In this document: positions 1 to 37,159 of the stretch, piece after piece
Layout of the letters: each line of letters opens with the position of its first letter
Numbering within the stretch: position 1 is the first letter of the stretch
NCBI GenBank assembly: GCA_028865725.1
Contig: JAGWJP010000001.1
Location: forward strand, 207,143 to 271,142
Direction of reading: 5' to 3'
DNA from: Patescibacteria group bacterium
Lineage (GTDB): Bacteria > Patescibacteriota > Minisyncoccia > UBA6257 > JACRHW01
Length of the DNA: 64,000 nucleotides
Program-made: the position numbers and the translations under genes
Notes under the pieces: generated by a model
Told to the model about the DNA's origin: nothing
Database searches by the model: none
The model's input: the letters and a program-made list of their open reading frames with translations, nothing else

Positions 1-155
1 AAGGTGGAGCGCGATAACTATAATACCGCGGTCGAAGCGTTCAACAACTGCATTGGGCAGTTTCCTGGGAATATTTTTGCGGGCGGAAGAACGGAGAAGC
101 CTATGTTTCAGCTTACTACGCCCGACGCGCAGAATGCGCCGCAAGTAAAGTTCTA
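1..155 (+). CDS. LemA family protein, C-terminal fragment (5' end outside the window)
   Basis: Frame 1 translates to ...NYNTAVEAFNNCIGQFPGNIFAGGRTEKPMFQLTTPDAQNAPQVKF*. This is typical of a LemA C-terminus. A TPM-domain gene follows, which is the usual LemA-TPM pairing. Confidence 0.5.
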
Positions 156-240
156 AGATTTTTAAGGGGTGCTGTCGCGTATGAAAGCGGCGGTGCCCCT
201 TTCTTATAAACCTAAACTCACCCAAAGGAGAAGGGGACCA

Positions 241-972
241 ATGAAAAGAATTGCGGTATTAATGCTTGGTGTCATGATATTTTTGATGAGCGGATGTACA
301 CCTGCCGTGCATAAGGATTTGAAACCTACAGGCTATGTGAATGATTTTGCGAATGTGTTGTCTCTTCAAACGAAAGGCAAGCTTGAGTCCGACCTTTTGA
401 ATTACAAAAAGACGACGACGAATGAAGTGGTAGTGGTGACTGTCGATTCGCTCGACGGGCAGGATATCGCTGATTTTGCAAATCATCTCGCACGCAAGTG
501 GGGCATAGGGACGAAAGAAAAGAATAACGGCGTGTTGATTCTTGTTGTGAAAGACACGGGAAAGCGTAGGATTGAGGTGGGGCGTGGTCTCGAGGGTGTG
601 CTGCCCGACGCGACAGCAAAGAGTATTCTTCTTGAAACAAGGCCACAGTTTAAGAATAGGCAATATGACGAGGGCGTAAGTCTTCTTGTTGAAAAGGTGG
701 TTCTTGCAACCAAGGGAGAATATAAAGCTCCGCCTACCGAGGAACAGCGTTTCATCGCATGGTTCATCTCGCTTGCATGGTGGGAGAAAGTGCTATTTGT
801 CATAGGTGCCCTTATTCTTTTGTGCCTTGTTATTGCGGCGCTTGGTTCTGATAGTGGTAGCGCTATCGTAGGAGCGTTCATCGGTGGCGCGCTTGGTGGT
901 GATGATTCAGGCGGTGGAGGTTTTGGGGGTTTCGGCGGTGGAGATTTCGGCGGTGGCGGAGCCAGCGATTAG
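241..972 (+). CDS. TPM-domain (YgcG/TLP18.3-like) lipoprotein with glycine-rich C-terminal tail
   Basis: MKRIAVLMLGVMIFLMSGC is a lipobox signal. The TPM core reads VNDFANVLS...VVTVDSLDGQDIADFANHLARKWGIG...NGVLILVV. A transmembrane segment and a GGFGGFGGGDFGGGG tail follow. AAGGAG lies upstream of the ATG at 241. Confidence 0.6.
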   Translation: MKRIAVLMLGVMIFLMSGCTPAVHKDLKPTGYVNDFANVLSLQTKGKLESDLLNYKKTTTNEVVVVTVDSLDGQDIADFANHLARKWGIGTKEKNNGVLILVVKDTGKRRIEVGRGLEGVLPDATAKSILLETRPQFKNRQYDEGVSLLVEKVVLATKGEYKAPPTEEQRFIAWFISLAWWEKVLFVIGALILLCLVIAALGSDSGSAIVGAFIGGALGGDDSGGGGFGGFGGGDFGGGGASD

Positions 973-1092
973 GAGTTAAAAAAAGAAAATAGCGTCCATG
1001 AGAGGCGCTTTTTGTTTTCCCAGTAAAAAAGTAGACAAACGAAGAAATATTATGTCATTATATTTTCGTATCCCCGAAAGGAGGAGAATGAG

Positions 1093-1383
1093 ATGCTAGA
1101 GTTCAAAAGGACAGCGGGCGGATTCGCGGTGCATGTTAATGGACAGCTCTTTGGCCACATCTCGAAAGAGCGTGGATTCTTTACCGACTCATCTGTGGTG
1201 AAGGCGTTTCTTGAGGTGTCCCCAGATGATCTTGAGCAGATTGTTCATAAGGCAAAGGAAGTGATGACGCATGGAGTGAATATTCCTACTTGTTCTGCTT
1301 GCCACGGTACACCCCAATTTCCCGCAATGATTTATAATCCAAATGAAGGTATGCAGTTATGTCAAAATGAACTTCATTCATGA
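1093..1383 (+). CDS. hypothetical small protein
   Basis: 96-aa ORF with GGAGGAG upstream and ATG at 1093. No recognisable domain. Confidence 0.35.
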   Translation: MLEFKRTAGGFAVHVNGQLFGHISKERGFFTDSSVVKAFLEVSPDDLEQIVHKAKEVMTHGVNIPTCSACHGTPQFPAMIYNPNEGMQLCQNELHS

Positions 1384-1551
1384 GGGCATACGCTAAGGTT
1401 AAGGCACAGGCTACTTCTTATGAAGTAGTTTTTATTCTGAGTGCGGGTGCTTCAAAGCCGAAGCTGCGAGGAGGGTATAAGTTTTTTGGTTTCCAAGAAT
1501 GTTCCATGTTTTATATGTTATGCCTCTCCTTTGATGACTTAGGATAAGTGC

Positions 1552-1579
1552 TTGACATTATAAATCCGTTCTGTACAAT
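1552..1579 (+). promoter_or_regulatory. sigma70-like promoter candidate for the 23S-5S rRNA operon
   Basis: TTGACA at 1552-1557 and TACAAT at 1574-1579 are separated by a 16-nt spacer. The pair lies ~410 nt upstream of the mature 23S 5' end. Confidence 0.35.
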
Positions 1580-2622
1580 AAGAGAACACGAATAATGGAT
1601 ATCAGAGCATACGAAAAAGGGTTTTGAAGAAAAGGGTTTTCAACCACTTCTTTTCAAAACCGCTCTTGTTTCCCGATGAGGCGGTTTTTAAAAATATGAC
1701 GATTGGCTATCCAGTTCTCCGACTTTGAAAGAGGGTGGAGAACTGGGAAGCGAATCAGTGACGGAGGAAGGACTGGTGTTTGAAAAGTGAACATATTTCG
1801 TAAATCGCATTTTCCCAGCTTATAAGGTGTAAACCATATAAGCGGGTTATCTCTTTTATGAGGAAGCAATTCTTCATAATAAGAAAATCAAACGATTTCC
1901 CTAAGTCCTCATGACATGCAAATGTGATGAGGCAGCGTTGAATGTAGAAAGACTCTTCCAAGTCTGTTCAACGTGTAATATCTATCTAGTTGGATACGGG
2001 TAATAGTAAGGGCACACGGTGGATGCCTAGACACTAAAAGGCGATGAAGGACGTAGCGTAGCTGCGATAAGTTTCGGGGAGGTGTGTAGCAACCTTTGAT
2101 CCGGAAATTTCCGAATGGGGCAACCCAGCACAGCAAACCTGTGTTACTTCGATATTAATAAATCGAAGGGCAAACCTGCTGAAGTGAAACATCTCAGTAA
2201 GCAGTGGAAAAGAAAAAATGTACGCGAATTTATACTGGCGTACAGGATGGCACATGTCATCGCGTCGTCAGTATAAATTCGCATTATTTCCTCAGTAGCG
2301 GCGAGCGAACAGGAAAGAGCCCAAACTTATTAGTCCTGAGTTTATCGAAGGATTGATAAGGGTTGTAGGGGAAAACACTCAATGTTTTAATTGTTCTGTA
2401 TCGGTCTTGTGCTTACAAGACTGGGAGAACAATTAGAACGTTGTAAAGAGTTACAAAATGAGTTCTTAGCTGAATCTGCCTGGAAAGCAGAGCCAAAGAG
2501 GGTGATGGCCCCGTAAGCGAAAAGAATTTCATCTCTTGTTTTTATCCCTGAGTACACCGACAAACGAAAGCGTTGGTGGAAGCATCCCACACTACAGGGA
2601 AAGGCTAAATACTTTTAGTGAT

Positions 2623-2659
<37 letters not shown>

Positions 2660-3748
2660 TAGGCCGGGAGGCCGATGAAATAGAACCTGAAACCGTGTGC
2701 TTACAAGGAATCGGAGCCCCCCACCATTTTTACTGATAGGCGTTGTTGTCTTCTTCTCTGTTGAAAAGAAGACAATAGCGTAAAATCAAAGATGCACTAT
2801 TGGTGAAAATGGTGGGGGGTGACGGTGTGCCTATTGAAGAATGAGTCAGCGAGTTATCCTGCATTGCTCGTTTAACCCCGCCCCACTTTTATGAAAAATG
2901 TTGTTGTACCAGCATTGAGTAATAGTGCATAACTGGTCTCTTTTGGTGGAGGAGATATCATGTTGTAGAAGTGGGGCGGGGGAAGGCAAAGCGAAAGCGA
3001 GTCTGAATAGGGCGTCGCATTTTCTAAGTTTATACGTTTTTGTCGCAAGACCGAACGTATAGACTTGGGATTTTGCAAGCAGTGCGGGCTAGACCCGAAG
3101 CCGGGTGAGCTTGCCGTGGCCAGGATGAAAGTCGACGAAAGTCGACTGGAGGTCCGAACCGGTTGGTTGTGCAAAACCTTCGGATGAGCTGCGGTAAGGA
3201 GTGAAAAGCTAATCGAACTCGGTAATAGCTGGTTCTCTCCGAAATAGTTCTAGGACTAGCCTTGGGACAACTACGTGTGGGGGGTAGAGCACTGGATGAA
3301 GGGTAAAGGGCTTCGGCTCGGCCGTTCAATCAAACTCCGAATACCCATACGACTATCCTGGGAGTCAGACAGTGGGGGCTAAGCTCCATAGTCAAAAGGG
3401 CAAGAACCCTGATGTTCATCTAAGGTCCCTAAGTTTTGACTAAGTGTAAAGGAAGTGACAAGCCGAAGACAGATAGGAGGTTGGCTTAGAGGTAGCCATC
3501 CTTTAAAGATTGTGTAACAACTCACTATCATATCCCTCACCTTTCGGTCGTAGATTTTTGTCAGATTAAGTTATTATTTTCTTATTTCTGATTATCAATG
3601 TACGTTCGAAAGGTGAGGGACTGGCTTGTTGCGCCGAAGATATATCGGGACTAAGTCAAATACCGAAGATAACAATTCCGTGCCTCACTTTTGTGTATAT
3701 ATGTATAAAATATAAGGAAATCTATCGAAATTAAGAAAAGGGATTTAT

Positions 3749-3885
3749 GTGGAGGTAGCTCAATTGGCAGAGCTTCAAGGAGGTGGTTCGTCATCATGCG
3801 ACGGGCAAGTGTGCGCACGCTTACCCGTAGCAGACACCTGCTAAAACCTTGAAGGTTCGAGGTTCGAATCCTCGCTTCCACACCA
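3749..3885 (+). ncRNA. tRNA-like element with genomically encoded CCA, embedded in the helix-45 intervening sequence of the 23S rRNA
   Basis: The acceptor stem is GTGGAGG/CTTCCAC with one G-U pair. U8 and A9 are present. The D-arm is GCTC-AATTGGCA-GAGC. The T-arm is CGAGG-TTCGAAT-CCTCG. Discriminator A and CCA follow. The anticodon-arm position (TCAAG...CTTGA) carries a ~68-nt structured insertion (AGGTG...CACCT, ACGGGCAAG...CTTACCCGT), so no normal anticodon loop exists. Confidence 0.5.
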
Positions 3886-5234
3886 GGGAAGCAGCGTCTT
3901 CCCTCCCTTTTCTTGGTTTTGATAGTGAAAATATATCCATAAAAGCGAGGCACGGTCTGGTAGGAGAGCATTCCAAGGGCGTTGAAGGTCAATCCGCGAG
4001 GAAGACTGGAGCGCTTGGAAGAGAGAATGCTGACATGAGTAACCGCAAGCACGATGAGAATTCGTGCCCCCGCAAATCCAAGGTTTCCGTGGCAATGGAA
4101 GTCAGCCACGGGTTAGGCGGCCCTAAGGCGATGGCGAAAGCCGCAGCTAATGGACAGCTGGTTAATATTCCAGCCCTCCGACATAACGTTCGATGGGGTG
4201 ACGAAAGAAATAAATGGGAGGGGATCAATGGTTATTCCCTCATTTGAGCTGAGAATGGTGTATTAGGAAAATCCGGTACACTATCTTTAATGATGGCATT
4301 CGGGCTTCGATGAAAGCGGGGATTATATTCTCGCGATTCCCGTGAAGAGCTTTCCAAGAAAACCCTCTAAGAATTAAGGTATGGCGGACCCGTACTGTAA
4401 ACCGACACAGGTGGATGAGGCGAGTAGCCTCAGGGGAACGGGTGATTTCTCGTTAAGGAACTCGGCAAAAAAGCGACCGTAACTTCGGGATAAGGTCTGG
4501 CTCACGCAAGTGAGCCCGCAGCTAAAGTTTCTCTGGCGACTGTTTACCAAAAACACAGCTCCCTGCTAACTCGTAAGAGGATGTATAGGGGGTGACGCCT
4601 GACCAATGCGAGAAGGTTAACGGTGGCGGTGTGTGCAGCACTTAGTTTGTAAGTAAGTAACGCTTATCAATTAAGTGCTGTGCATGCTAACTGCCCGAAG
4701 CCCTCGTCAATGTCGGCGATAACTATAATCGTCCAAAGGTAGCGCAACTCCTTGTCGGGTAAGTTCCGACGTGCATGAATGGCGTAACGACTGGAGAACT
4801 GTCTCAACGAGAAGCCCGGTGAAAGTGCGACACCAGCGAAGACGCTGGTACCCTATAGCGGGACGAAAAGACCCCGGGAGCTTTACTGTAGCTTGATATT
4901 GGGTTTACGTTCTAATTACGTAGCGTAGTGGGGAGAGGTTGAAGGTTTGATTTCGGTTGGACTGGACTCGTCAATGAAACACCCATTTTTTAGAATGTAT
5001 ATCCTAACCTTTGCGGAAAAACCGCAGGGGGACAGTGTCTGGTGGGCAGTTTTCGTGGGGCGCGATCCTCCCAAAGAGTAACGGAGGAGTTTATCAAGGT
5101 CAGCTTAGCCTGGATGGAAATCAGGCTGGACGTGTAAAGGCACAAGCTGGCTTAACGGCAAGGCTTACAAGCCGCGCCGATGCGAAAGCAGAACTTAATG
5201 ACCCGATGGCACTTTGTAGAAAGGCCTGAGACAT

Positions 5235-5270
<36 letters not shown>

Positions 5271-5401
5271 GGTCCGAGCGTCCCTAGCGACGACCAGGTT
5301 CGGCACCTCGATGTCGGCTCATCTTATCCTGGGACTGAAGAAGGCCCCAAGGGTTTGGCTGTTCGCCAATTAAAAAGATACGCGAGCTGGGTTCAAACCG
5401 T

Positions 5402-5850
5402 TAAGAGACGGACGTTATGAACATGAATCATATCGCTCGGTTTTTTAACAGTTTGAACCCCGAGGAAAAGACATGAGTCACGGCGGCATCTAAACATTTG
5501 TTTAGTGTAAAGTTAACTTATATCGGTAGAATCCACTCATCAATGGACAATACCGAGGGAACAATGCAAAACTCAAAATGCAAAATTATGAAGATATGAA
5601 AATGTGCATTTTCATATCTTCATTTTAAACTTTGAGATTTACTTTTTACATTTAAGTATCATGAAATGACACGATTGGCCCGTAGAGACTACACGTTAAC
5701 TATTCCTAAATAGAAAGACTCGAACTTTTAAGGGAAAGTTCGTTCGATCTTAAAGATTTAGGAAGAAAGATATAGTCCAATACACTTAGTAATAAGTGAA
5801 AACAACCACTGAGCTTTTATTCTTACGAGAGTTGAAGTGAAGTAATATGC
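5402..5850 (+). other. ~450-nt ORF-less insertion in 23S domain V, a candidate group I intron or large intervening sequence
   Basis: The conserved sequence GGGTTCAAACCGT ... GTGAGACAGGTTGGTCTCTATCTGC corresponds to E. coli GGGUUUAGAACGUCGUGAGACAGUUCGGUCCCUAUC at ~2586-2615. It is split by ~450 nt of AT-rich structured sequence containing a perfect 16-bp hairpin, GAAGATATGAAAATGTGCATTTTCATATCTTC. No ORF longer than 60 aa is present. Confidence 0.35.
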
Positions 5851-5992
5851 GTGAGACAGGTTGGTCTCTATCTGCTATAGGCGTTCGAAACTTGAGAGGA
5901 GTTGCCCTTTGTACGAGAGGATCAGGGTGAACGAGCCTCTGGTGTATCGGCTTTCATACCAATGGAATTGCCGAGTAGCTATTGCACGGAAG

Positions 5993-6025
<33 letters not shown>

Positions 6026-6195
6026 CACCTCAAGATTAGGTTTCGTGGTTCGACGCGAGTCGAACGAAAGACCCCTTGAAGATGACAAGGTTGATAGGCT
6101 TCAGGTGTAAGGCCAGTAATGGTTTCAGCCGAGAAGTACTAATAGGTCGAACTTCCCGTATCCAACTAGGTTGATATTGGAAAATTTATTTCTTT

Positions 6196-6418: not shown

Positions 6419-6538
6419 TCTCTTGGTGATTTAGCGTTCTAGGAACCACCTCTTCCCATTCCGAACAGAGTCGTGAAAATAGAAAGCCCTGATGATACTG
6501 CTTGCGCAAGCGAGGGGGAAAGTAAGGTTTGCCGAGAG
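6419..6538 (+). rRNA. rrf: 5S ribosomal RNA
   Basis: TCTTGGTGATTTAGCG...CCCATTCCGAACAGAG...GCCGAGAG. The CCGAAC loop C motif is present and the terminal helix pairs. It lies 250 nt downstream of the 23S. Confidence 0.75.
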
Positions 6539-36734: not shown

Positions 36735-36824
36735 TTGGCGGAAAGGGAGGGATTCGAACCCTCGGTGCCATTGCTGACACACAGTCTTTCCAGGACTGCC
36801 GTTTCAACCACTCACGCACCTTTC
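36735..36824 (-). tRNA. tRNA-Ser (anticodon GGA), type II with long variable arm, CCA encoded
   Basis: Reverse complement reads GGAAAGG-TG-CGT-GAGTGGTTGAA-ACG-G-CAGTC-CTGGAAA-GACTG-(variable arm GTGTCAGCAATGGCAC)-GAGGG-TTCGAAT-CCCTC-CCTTTCC-G-CCA. Confidence 0.85.
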
Positions 36825-36961
36825 CTTTTATGGTGTACTATAAAATAGTACCAGCCTTTCAGTCCGTTTGGCAACTTTTGCTCTCAAACATTGAGGTTGC
36901 ATAACATTGTTATTTTCGGTAAAACTAGAGATGCAAAAGATATTAGTGAGAGTAGACTAGA

Positions 36962-37040: not shown

Positions 37041-37115
37041 CCGCCTGTAGCTCAGTCCGGTTAGAGCACGGAGCTTATATCTCCGCGGTCCCAGGTTCGA
37101 ATCCTGGCGGGCGGA
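37041..37115 (+). tRNA. tRNA-Ile (anticodon UAU), no CCA encoded
   Basis: CCGCCTG-TA-GCTC-AGTCCGGTTA-GAGC-A-CGGAG-CTTATAT-CTCCG-CGGTC-CCAGG-TTCGAAT-CCTGG-CGGGCGG-A. U8 and A9 are present. The anticodon loop has U33-UAU-A37. Confidence 0.7.
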
Positions 37116-37159
37116 CACATCTTTTTAAGTGAAACGAACACAGGCGTTATATCGAAGAT

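Follow-up and report, generated by a model that had tools for sequence, protein, structure and literature searches.

The question raised by this locus is whether the segment lodged in helix 45 of a Parcubacteria-type (CPR) 23S rRNA is a tRNA gene, the relic of one, or a tRNA-shaped module that serves another purpose within the ribosomal precursor. In the window, the whole 64-kb stretch of DNA that was analysed, Rfam assigns the large subunit rRNA to positions 1994-6163 of the plus strand, and the alignment to E. coli rrlH bears out helix 45 as the predicted place of insertion: the native hairpin is replaced, and the conserved sequence is taken up again at about 3956, with GGTAGGAGAGC lying just past this point, at window 3959, on E. 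coli ~1183 onward. The insert and its borders comprise the following features.

3629-3668, plus strand: conserved 23S sequence 5' of helix 45, equal to E. coli 1118-1157 and ending in ACCGAAG (MAFFT alignment to E. coli rrlH and Rfam LSU match).
3669-3955, plus strand: 287-nt insert in place of helix 45, replacing E. coli 1158-1185 (28 nt; alignment to rrlH).
3678-3688, plus strand: 5' arm of the basal inverted repeat (CCGTGCCTCAC), which pairs with 3945-3955 in the minimum-energy fold.
3689-3748, plus strand: AT-rich 5' leader, mostly paired with the trailer and lengthening helix 45; it ends in UUUAU, which places a U at -1.
3749-3885, plus strand: tRNA-like element (Rfam RF00005; ARAGORN -i cloverleaf).
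3886-3903, plus strand: hairpin GGGAAG-CAGCGT-CTTCCC directly 3' of the CCA, followed by a T-rich run; terminator-like (fold).
3904-3944, plus strand: 3' trailer, pairing with the leader (fold).
3945-3955, plus strand: 3' arm of the basal inverted repeat (GCGAGGCACGG; minimum-energy fold and sequence).
3956-3990, plus strand: resumption of the 23S (TCTGGTAGGAGAGCATTCC...), E. coli ~1183-1215 (alignment).

The inverted repeat that was originally predicted to bound the insert exists, but its 3' arm lies at 3945-3955 and not at about 3937-3947, which is ~8 nt too low; the two arms form nine perfect pairs, followed by an A.C mismatch. The whole insert has a folding energy of -119.9 kcal/mol (z = -9.7 relative to shuffled sequences), with 45 pairs joining its first and last 80 nt, and a long duplex likewise closes all 15 of the other distinct true inserts with anchorable ends. 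In the predicted fold, the three-way junction that bears the module is compact and leaves few nucleotides unpaired. Of the 24 distinct inserts folded, nearly all have a strong hairpin between the last unit and the helix-45 3' strand; the terminal A of the CCA may pair into this downstream hairpin, a possible hindrance to 3' access. A promoter-tRNA-terminator cassette was considered and rejected, since the 5' leader has no promoter-like site and the 3885-3904 hairpin is part of this recurrent junction architecture. Compared with that of E. coli, the 23S of the window has at least 12 further insertions, from 14 to 448 nt long, and an Intron_gpI match was found at 5630-5799 by the same Rfam search mode that was used on the insert.

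The tRNA-like element itself is divided as follows.

3749-3755 and 3875-3881, plus strand: acceptor stem, 7 bp including one G.U (ARAGORN -i).
3756-3757, plus strand: U8 and A9 (ARAGORN -i).
3758-3773, plus strand: D arm, with a 4-bp stem and the loop AATTGGCA.
3775-3779 and 3848-3852, plus strand: anticodon stem, 5 bp (ARAGORN -i).
3780-3840, plus strand: 61-nt insertion between tRNA positions 31 and 32, an AGGUG/CACCU stem with an 11-bp hairpin containing one C.A mismatch, which prolongs the anticodon arm.
3841-3847, plus strand: residual 7-nt anticodon-like loop CTAAAAC, with the 'anticodon' AAA (ARAGORN -i).
3853-3857, plus strand: variable loop AGGTT (ARAGORN -i).
3858-3874, plus strand: T arm CGAGG-TTCGAAT-CCTCG (ARAGORN -i).
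3882 and 3883-3885, plus strand: A73 and the encoded CCA (sequence).

An element at 3749-3885 with the parts of a cloverleaf, a discriminator A and an encoded CCA had been proposed from the sequence, and it is confirmed both by RF00005 (48.4 bits against a gathering threshold of 29, E = 1.3e-9, full model 1-71) and by ARAGORN in its relaxed, introns-allowed mode, which draws a perfect cloverleaf; in the RF00005 alignment, 68 nt stand where 7 are expected. The 7-bp acceptor stem, the 4-bp D stem, the GG in its loop, the 5-bp T stem, the TTCRANT loop, U8 and the discriminator of a canonical cloverleaf are all present, and the sequence also provides U at -1, G1-C72 and ACCA, the CCA being encoded in one of the six ordinary tRNA genes of the window. 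Because of the insertion, the element is missed by default ARAGORN and by a whole-window Rfam run at the gathering threshold, and its detection needed intron-tolerant ARAGORN together with a local Rfam search.

The original prediction of an extension of about 68 nt where the anticodon loop should be holds in part. The extension and its AGGTG/CACCT stem are there, but the supposed 9-bp ACGGGCAAG/CTTACCCGT hairpin is interrupted by a C.A mismatch (5 bp, a 1x1 mismatch and 6 bp), and a normal-looking 7-nt CTAAAAC is left after the 61-nt insertion. In the minimum-energy and centroid folds, this region forms a 3'-side bulge (GCUAAAA) and not a closed loop. The contiguous 7-nt loop on a 5-bp stem expected of a decoding tRNA is absent from the encoded RNA, where 61 nt separate positions 31 and 32, and the anticodon is neither conserved among orthologues nor matched to the tRNA body. 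Regarding the 61 nt, a repeat or miniature transposable element was rejected, since neither the window nor any of the fetched loci contains a further copy; there is no Rfam family for the segment; and membership in the three insert families of other bacterial tRNA arrays is not supported, the layout being alike (a stem flanking a hairpin) with no common conserved motif.

The element is not a singleton and belongs to a recurrent class. Homologues were obtained by a metagenome scan and by synteny walking, and tRNA-shaped units, from one to five per insert, are found at this site of the 23S in about 25 more uncultured lineages, of which the placeable ones are Parcubacteria/Paceibacteria; most inserts are flanked by 23S sequence on both sides. 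An ARAGORN tRNA is contained in 31 of the 33 metagenome matches to the pattern 'T-loop 60-90 nt upstream of the post-helix-45 motif'; locus L152 has a partial Rfam tRNA match of 28.5 bits (threshold 29) and a cloverleaf parsed by eye, and L146 is a false match with a normal helix 45. The public genome of Parcubacteria LiPW_15 (GCA_007375645.1) carries five tandem units, all of them with NCCA. In L164, the closest relative, whose 23S has an overall identity of about 89%, helix 45 is short and plain, with 32 nt between the same anchor motifs versus 290 in the window; the ribosome therefore does not need the module, which is dispensable, and any function it has is non-essential. Plain hairpin inserts of 183 nt (L168) and about 80 nt (L170) occupy the site in relatives reached by synteny. 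In being patchy and dispensable, the module resembles classical intervening sequences, and the insert has both the end duplex and the sporadic occurrence that mark these at helix 45.

The window element itself has no close orthologue to test. Neighbour-gene walking succeeded via RodA/FtsW, the 289-aa hypothetical neighbour protein having no homologue besides itself and the homologues of the TPM-domain protein (no more than 53% identity across 58% of the query) being too distant for walking. A genome-collection scan with the pattern D arm, 70-100 nt, then T-loop gave at least 120 loci, and the matches listed are mostly tandem tRNA pairs, archaeal intron-containing tRNAs and unrelated long tRNAs, with no helix-45 homologue among them.

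In the 21 aligned units, 95.7% of the cloverleaf cells are paired, versus about 46% in slid controls, and 133 cells have double changes, with the observed covariation reached by none of 500 shuffles; the homologues were chosen by a canonical T-loop and then by ARAGORN, so that the T-loop conservation and part of this cloverleaf signal are circular. Conservation and covariation of the cloverleaf, by which the prediction could be checked, hold in the tRNA-shaped units at the same 23S site in these other lineages. In 14 non-canonical units, pairing amounts to 95-100% in the stems of the acceptor, D and T arms and to 87% in the anticodon stem, the D-loop GG is retained in 13 and NCCA in 12. The anticodon loops are often non-canonical, with C33 or G33 or a length of 6 or 8 nt, and 'Leu' and 'Ser' anticodons are found on bodies that have no long variable arm. 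Anticodon-arm insertions range from 11 to 61 nt, and the place of insertion differs, being the D region in L152 (about 47 nt) and the anticodon or variable region in L154, L156 and L140. Canonical loops are present in L125, L141, L142/143 and L157a. Encoded NCCA is found in 19 of 23 units with non-canonical loops versus 4 of 11 with canonical ones (Fisher p = 0.016, the units not being phylogenetically independent), and U occupies position -1 in 19 of 29 units.

The most direct comparison is that of L134b with unit 5 of L158, which are orthologous in 23S backgrounds 97-99.5% identical: outside the anticodon arm they are about 86% identical, and their 24-nt leaders are the same, but their anticodon stem-loops agree at only 6 of 17 positions, the anticodon being GAC in the former and CUA in the latter. 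Judged from these sequences, decoding is not conserved among the units, whose anticodon loops are unconstrained while NCCA, the acceptor stem and the D and T arms persist, a pattern that favours a role in processing or mimicry over one in decoding; selection appears to retain the minihelix of acceptor and T arm, the elbow of D and T arms, an anticodon arm that is helical whatever its sequence, and the encoded NCCA.

The features so retained are those recognised by RNase P, by 3' trimming enzymes and by other tRNA-handling enzymes, and an encoded CCA speaks against RNase Z specifically. The U at -1, G1-C72 and RCCA of the units also agree with what bacterial RNase P is known to prefer. The explanation favoured here, which taken as a whole and with processing included has about an even chance of being right, is that the element is a tRNA-derived module no longer decoding, set in the three-way junction of a lengthened helix 45, and that it would open the insert to RNase P and to 3' trimming, nick the 23S at helix 45 and free a tRNA mimic of ~137 nt. 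RNase P would cut the 23S precursor at U3748/G3749 and the 3' side would be trimmed back to the CCA at 3885, steps that may be preceded by RNase III cleavage of the long leader-trailer duplex; the mature 23S would stay nicked at helix 45, held by the basal stem, and a CCA-ended mimic of roughly 137 nt would be freed once per ribosome made. Some members of the family still resemble ordinary tRNA genes, which suggests how the family may have arisen.

Some points count against such processing. The leader-trailer duplex on its own would permit classical excision by RNase III, which may make the tRNA shape superfluous, and one RNase P site would be enough, so that the five-unit arrays are left unexplained by a pure processing role. 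Motifs of RNase III, RNase Z, the CCA-adding enzyme and RnpA are not found among the ORFs of the 64-kb window, which was the scope of this search within the genome.

The module might instead be a decaying tRNA pseudogene, passive within an ordinary helix-45 intervening sequence of which RNase III cuts the duplex, the insert being discarded and the tRNA shape idle. The helix-45 site, the long closing duplex and the patchy occurrence among relatives are hallmarks of intervening sequences, plain hairpins stand at the same site in L168 and L170, the anticodon arms are disrupted in many units, and genuine-looking units such as the Trp unit of L125 provide a source from which decay could start. Nevertheless, neutral decay would strike all arms equally, whereas the acceptor, D and T stems of the non-canonical units remain almost fully paired; encoded NCCA is commoner in the 'degenerate' than in the canonical units, the reverse of decay; and the difference between near-identical 23S backgrounds is almost confined to the anticodon arm. 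On these grounds passive decay is unlikely.

It is quite unlikely that the insert is a retained expansion segment, unexcised and forming a tRNA-shaped branch on the solvent side of the 50S subunit, either as a tethered mimic or as a structural outgrowth. The other insertions of this 23S indicate that expansions are tolerated, and the compact junction and the hairpin recurring before the helix-45 3' strand resemble architecture and not spacer; yet a buried or internal mimic has no obvious need for a discriminator and CCA, while NCCA is preferentially kept, and a range of 0 to 5 units among close relatives is hard to square with a fixed ribosome structure. There is also a slim chance that CPR 23S precursors yield CCA-ended, non-decoding tRNA mimics, one to five per rRNA and with extremely fast turnover of the anticodon arm while the rest is frozen, that have a function of their own beyond that of processing scars, for example as decoys or sponges for tRNA-targeting nucleases or toxins of phages or hosts, as aminoacyl carriers outside translation, or as a readout that ties the making of ribosomes to tRNA-handling enzymes.

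A genuine tRNA gene interrupted by a 61-nt intron, transcribed along with the 23S and converted by excision and an unknown splicing into a 76-nt decoding tRNA, is very unlikely, even if ARAGORN builds a perfect 76-nt tRNA with U33 and A37 without the 61 nt, the Trp units of L125 and L141 (A1-U72 and G73) have canonical loops on isotype-consistent bodies, and tRNA genes of bacteria and phages do contain short, structured inserts that are unexplained (Devoto et al. 2019, PMC6784885). The 61 nt are far below the size of a group I intron and give no group I match in Rfam, the fold has a single 7-nt bulge and no bulge-helix-bulge, and related units differ in the position of their insertions, in their non-canonical loops and, between orthologues, in the anticodon. 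Also against it, the anticodon AAA is to our knowledge unused by bacteria, and we know of no protein-based tRNA splicing machinery described in them.

Tests for other classes were negative. A group I or group II intron fragment, against which the original prediction was to be checked, has no Rfam match in 3660-3960 at E <= 10; for an archaeal-type spliced intron, whose exon-intron junctions would form a 3-nt bulge, a 4-bp helix and a 3-nt bulge, the minimum-energy and centroid folds have no bulge at the 5' junction and a single 7-nt bulge at the 3' one; mascRNA/menRNA (RF01684) scores 17.6 bits against a threshold of 42.5, indicating no homology; and ARAGORN -m finds no tmRNA.

If the insert is indeed processed through its non-decoding, tRNA-derived module, some CPR bacteria would mature or fragment their 23S rRNA by the tRNA-processing machinery, and as many tRNA-shaped RNAs as ribosomes would be produced; the processing of CPR rRNA can be followed directly at the RNA ends 3749 and 3885. 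Nested tRNA and tRNA-like genes of this kind are overlooked by standard tRNA finders and rRNA annotators, which matters to tRNA censuses of reduced genomes that seemingly lack tRNAs, and the anticodon arms constitute a hypervariable RNA region between near-identical genomes.

In the full-text literature searched, no report of tRNAs inside 23S intervening sequences was found, so that the lack of a known precedent noted at the outset holds for the searchable literature. Many short unclassified inserts at classical intervening-sequence sites of CPR 23S have been assumed to be intervening sequences of the RNase III-excised kind, with no mention of tRNA (Tsurumaki et al. 2024, PMC11270868). Helix-45 intervening sequences and tRNA-shaped processing signals are each known, and their combination within a bacterial rRNA helix, which does not appear in the searched literature, is what would be new. 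The helix-45 intervening sequences of Salmonella, Campylobacter, Coxiella and Leptospira, excised by RNase III without religation, have the same site, the long stem, and the sporadic and dispensable character. Classical intervening sequences are, as far as is known, plain hairpins, or bear an ORF as in Coxiella. None is known with a tRNA cloverleaf and encoded CCA, both of which the window insert has, nor in tandem arrays.

In tRNA punctuation of rRNA transcripts, exemplified by the rrn spacer tRNAs, the mitochondrial punctuation model and the tRNA gene that divides the mitochondrial LSU rRNA of Tetrahymena, the tRNA is likewise co-transcribed with rRNA, and excision by RNase P and a 3' nuclease sets the rRNA ends. 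The helix-45 units with canonical loops may be of this type, whereas the window tRNA lies within a bacterial 23S helix and not between rRNA genes, and has lost its decoding features. The mascRNA of MALAT1, MEN-beta and the plant mitochondrial t-elements are also non-decoding mimics within a longer RNA, thought to recruit RNase P/RNase Z with release of a small RNA; they are, however, eukaryotic or organellar, and the CCA of mascRNA is added after cleavage while that of the window element is encoded.

Intron-containing tRNA genes, such as those with group I introns in Patescibacteria (PMC13011429), the archaeal ones and those with the 'enigmatic' short introns of Lak megaphages (PMC6784885), likewise have an extra anticodon-arm segment in an otherwise perfect cloverleaf. 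The window segment differs in having no group I signature and no bulge-helix-bulge, in being too short and in leaving an unusable anticodon, and the related helix-45 units conserve neither the insertion site nor the anticodon. Finally, the tRNA-like domain of tmRNA and the Y RNA YrlA share with the window element a mimicry of the tRNA top half without decoding, from which the latter is distinguished by its free acceptor ends with CCA, its full D arm and its genomic context.

Units of tRNA shape in inserts that replace helix 45 of the 23S rRNA are a real finding, and apparently one so far undescribed. The literature searched full-text yielded no report of a tRNA or tRNA-like element within a 23S intervening sequence, which does not imply that none exists elsewhere; in their systematic study of rRNA insertions in CPR bacteria, Tsurumaki et al. 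2024 (PMC11270868) make no mention of tRNA, a CPR ribosome paper (PMC9297842) mentions neither helix 45 nor tRNA genes, and a survey of Patescibacteria for introns in tRNA (PMC13011429) covers group I introns only.

The 23S gene of the window measures 4170 nt against a model of 2925 positions, and its alignment to E. coli rrlH reveals 13 insertions of 14-448 nt, together with a 23-nt deletion of E. coli 1705-1727. Since protein-coding genes and no 16S rRNA precede it in window 1-1993, the 23S-5S pair is not linked to the 16S; several Parcubacteria have the gene order mechanosensitive channel ... 23S-5S ... RodA-YceG-RpoB-RpoC in common with the window.

Features of the rRNA region of the window (insertions relative to E. 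coli)
241-972, TPM-domain protein upstream of the 23S
1093-1383, 96-aa ORF upstream of the 23S
1994-6163, bacterial LSU rRNA (Rfam)
2225-2285, 23S insertion, 61 nt
2329-2348, 23S insertion, 20 nt
2375-2476, 23S insertion, 102 nt
2723-2736, 23S insertion, 14 nt
2744-2818, 23S insertion, 75 nt
2878-2974, 23S insertion, 97 nt
3016-3075, 23S insertion, 60 nt
3539-3628, AT-rich insertion, 90 nt, after E. coli 1117, adjoining the GTPase-associated region
3534-3546 and 3607-3619, perfect 13-bp inverted repeat closing the 3539-3628 insertion, CCCTCACCTTTCG / CGAAAGGTGAGGG
3678-3688 and 3945-3955, inverted repeat bounding the helix-45 insert, CCGTGCCTCAC / GCGAGGCACGG
4336-4350, 23S insertion, 15 nt
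4639-4681, 23S insertion, 43 nt
5402-5849, insertion, 448 nt, after E. coli 2593 of the 23S
6421-6538, 5S rRNA (Rfam)

At helix 45, window 3629-3668 corresponds to E. coli 1118-1157; because the alignment breaks at 3668 and the 23S picks up again only near 3956, the E. coli hairpin of 28 nt has been swapped for 287 nt (3669-3955). The inverted repeat that the original prediction placed around this insert is present, with its 3' arm at 3945-3955, about 8 nt higher than first given. On folding, the whole insert forms a single long hairpin (-119.9 kcal/mol, z = -9.7), in which the leader 3689-3748 pairs with the trailer 3904-3944. The tRNA-like element predicted within it is borne out by two programs: the full Rfam tRNA model matches 3749-3882 at 48.4 bits (threshold 29, E = 1.3e-9), 68 nt taking the position of the anticodon loop, and ARAGORN with introns allowed returns a cloverleaf without flaws, in which 61 nt are inserted at position 31/32, the loop reads CTAAAAC and A73 is followed by a CCA encoded at 3883-3885. 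Neither default ARAGORN nor the whole-window Rfam run detects the element. The 61-nt insertion, of which no second copy was found in the window or in any fetched locus, folds as an AGGUG/CACCU stem around an 11-bp hairpin with one C.A mismatch, and the hairpin directly 3' of the CCA (3886-3903), terminator-like by scan, is part of the junction.

Other identities for the element were rejected: mascRNA membership reaches 17.6 bits against a threshold of 42.5 in Rfam, the tmRNA search of ARAGORN is negative, and the Rfam search gives no group I match, which disposes of the group I intron fragment considered at the outset; no further Rfam family lies above threshold at the element.

The element belongs to a wider set than the original prediction could foresee. 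In JGI metagenome data, a scan for T-loops lying 60-90 nt ahead of the conserved post-helix-45 motif yielded 33 contigs; in 31 of these, ARAGORN places a gene of tRNA shape immediately 5' of the motif. One locus missed by ARAGORN, L152, has a partial Rfam tRNA match of 28.5 bits, just under the threshold of 29; parsed by eye, its unit (~395-690) is an apparent cloverleaf whose D region is enlarged by an insertion of ~47 nt that includes a hairpin, with a Phe-like anticodon loop CTGAAAA and the 3' end ..CCCACCCCA. Another, L146, is a false match with a normal helix 45. Most inserts are flanked on both sides by 23S sequence (BLAST against E. coli), several hold two or three units, and collapsing identical contigs leaves ~24 lineages and ~28 distinct units. 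Taxonomy is known for two scan loci: L154 bears a gene annotated in 'Candidatus Paceibacterota', and L155/L134 clusters at at least 90% identity with Parcubacteria bacterium LiPW_15 (GCA_007375645.1, contig VMER01000004.1, locus L158). The 763-nt helix-45 insert of the latter (L158 2733-3495) contains five tandem tRNA-like units, all with an encoded NCCA (discriminator plus CCA) and four with non-canonical anticodon loops or insertions; the fifth has the anticodon CUA and is called 'amber suppressor' or 'Pyl' by ARAGORN. A small hairpin whose loop has 8 nt, GG-AUUAGACA-CC or GGAUUAGCUAUCC, recurs in the helix-45 inserts of L147, L156 and, mid-insert, L134, where it lies within a ~150-nt segment (start GCGGG, end CCCGCACCA) that may be a heavily remodelled tRNA-like unit.

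When 21 units, stripped of their insertions, are aligned with MAFFT, 95.7% of cloverleaf cells are paired, compared with 38-49% when partners are slid, and double changes occur in 18 of 21 pairs, values attained in 0 of 500 shuffles; the cloverleaf covaries, part of this signal and the T-loop invariance being built in, as units were picked by T-loop pattern and then by ARAGORN. About half of the units have anticodon loops foreign to decoding tRNA, with C33 or G33, loops of 6 or 8 nt or insertions of 11-61 nt, and in some a 'Leu(UAA)' or 'Ser(CGA)' anticodon goes with a body that lacks the long variable arm; these loops count against the least likely rival, a functional tRNA containing an intron. 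Stem pairing in 14 non-canonical units is 95% in the acceptor, 96% in the D, 100% in the T and 87% in the anticodon stem. NCCA is encoded in 19 of 23 non-canonical and 4 of 11 canonical-loop units (Fisher p = 0.016, for units that are not phylogenetically independent), and CCA in one of the six ordinary tRNA genes of the window, the tRNA-Ser at 36736-36825. Taken together, these data show a tRNA-derived module selected for tRNA shape, acceptor/T minihelix and NCCA, not for the anticodon. Canonical-loop units such as those of L125 and L141 (Trp-like, A1-U72, G73) are possibly genuine tRNA genes lying within the 23S, and suggest the source of the family.

Closer comparison is afforded by L134 and L158, whose 23S flanks are 97-99.5% identical (units compared: L134 3049-3124 with L158 3364-3439, and L134 3300-3377 with L158 3255-3330). 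Their last helix-45 units are orthologous, with an identical 24-nt leader and ~86% identity outside the anticodon arm; of the 17 positions of the anticodon stem-loop only 6 agree, both arms stay helical, the anticodons are GAC and CUA, respectively, and the downstream hairpin differs. The anticodon stem-loop and the adjacent apical hairpin are subject to localised hypervariability or cassette replacement. The last unit of L134 and that of the window are identical in the D arm, share the T-loop, 5' GTG, 3' CACACCA and AGGTT as an unusual variable loop, and are probably the same lineage of unit, with an anticodon arm longer by 61 nt in the window.

Elsewhere in the window 23S, the 448-nt insertion (5402-5849), missing in the close relative L164, has no ORF of at least 60 aa; its part 5630-5799 matches a group I intron below threshold (38.5 bits against 50, E = 2e-8). 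A ~100-nt hairpin-like segment of the insertion (5560-5654) is 80% identical to L164 5208-5305, part of another 23S insertion, after E. coli 1117; one small element therefore sits at differing rRNA insertion sites in related genomes. The window also encodes a tRNA-Ile with anticodon UAU (37041-37116); AUA is read in most bacteria by a lysidine-modified CAU tRNA.

Among the matches listed, tRNA genes of 108-155 nt also occur in unrelated bacteria (by record title, where shown, Chloroflexia, Nostoc, Bacteroidota lineages and Lachnospiraceae), frequently two to four in an array. Their acceptor stems are perfect, and near position 28/29 the 5' strand of the anticodon stem is interrupted by ~45-65 nt of conserved, structured insert. 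Rfam finds nothing but tRNA at these loci, and removal of the insert leaves a canonical anticodon loop in several units of the subset parsed by eye. The inserts fall into three motif families among the matches listed; a relation to the 'enigmatic' tRNA introns of Lak megaphages (PMC6784885) is possible.

Long-tRNA insert types (L087, L107, L110 and L112 assigned by insert motif only)
Type a: L062, L087, L107, L042, L112
Type b: L010, L041, L059, L061, L033
Type c: L023, L057, L069, L110, L065

Six 23S genes, the window included, were reached through the synteny 23S ... RodA/FtsW - YceG - RpoB, without T-loop selection.

State of helix 45 in the synteny sample
Window: one tRNA-like unit
L158: five tRNA-like units
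L168: 183-nt AT-rich plain hairpin
L170: ~80-nt hairpin
L164: short helix 45
L172: short helix 45

The closest relative of the window is L164 (RodA 62% identical, 23S 89% over 3251 aligned nt), with 32 nt between identical anchor motifs versus 290 nt in the window; since its helix 45 is short, the module is dispensable and patchily distributed. These comparisons show that it sits in a dispensable insert and is a member of a recurrent family, and they weigh against the rival that the insert is kept as an rRNA expansion segment. In favour of that rival, nearly all of 24 distinct inserts folded have a strong hairpin that separates the last unit from the conserved 3' strand of helix 45. A closing duplex of 19-45 pairs joins the insert ends in the window and 15 other distinct true inserts with anchorable ends. 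This duplex suits the likeliest rival, a passive pseudogene within an intervening sequence excised by RNase III, against which stand the paired acceptor and T stems and the encoded NCCA of the non-canonical units. Bacterial RNase P prefers U at -1, G1-C72 and an RCCA 3' end, and RNase Z is inhibited by CCA; U occupies -1 in 19 of 29 units. The module is a putative substrate for RNase P and 3' trimming, a plausible mechanism by which the 23S would be nicked at helix 45 and a ~137-nt tRNA mimic set free. In its patchy distribution and dispensability, the tRNA-like module of helix 45 resembles the classical intervening sequences.
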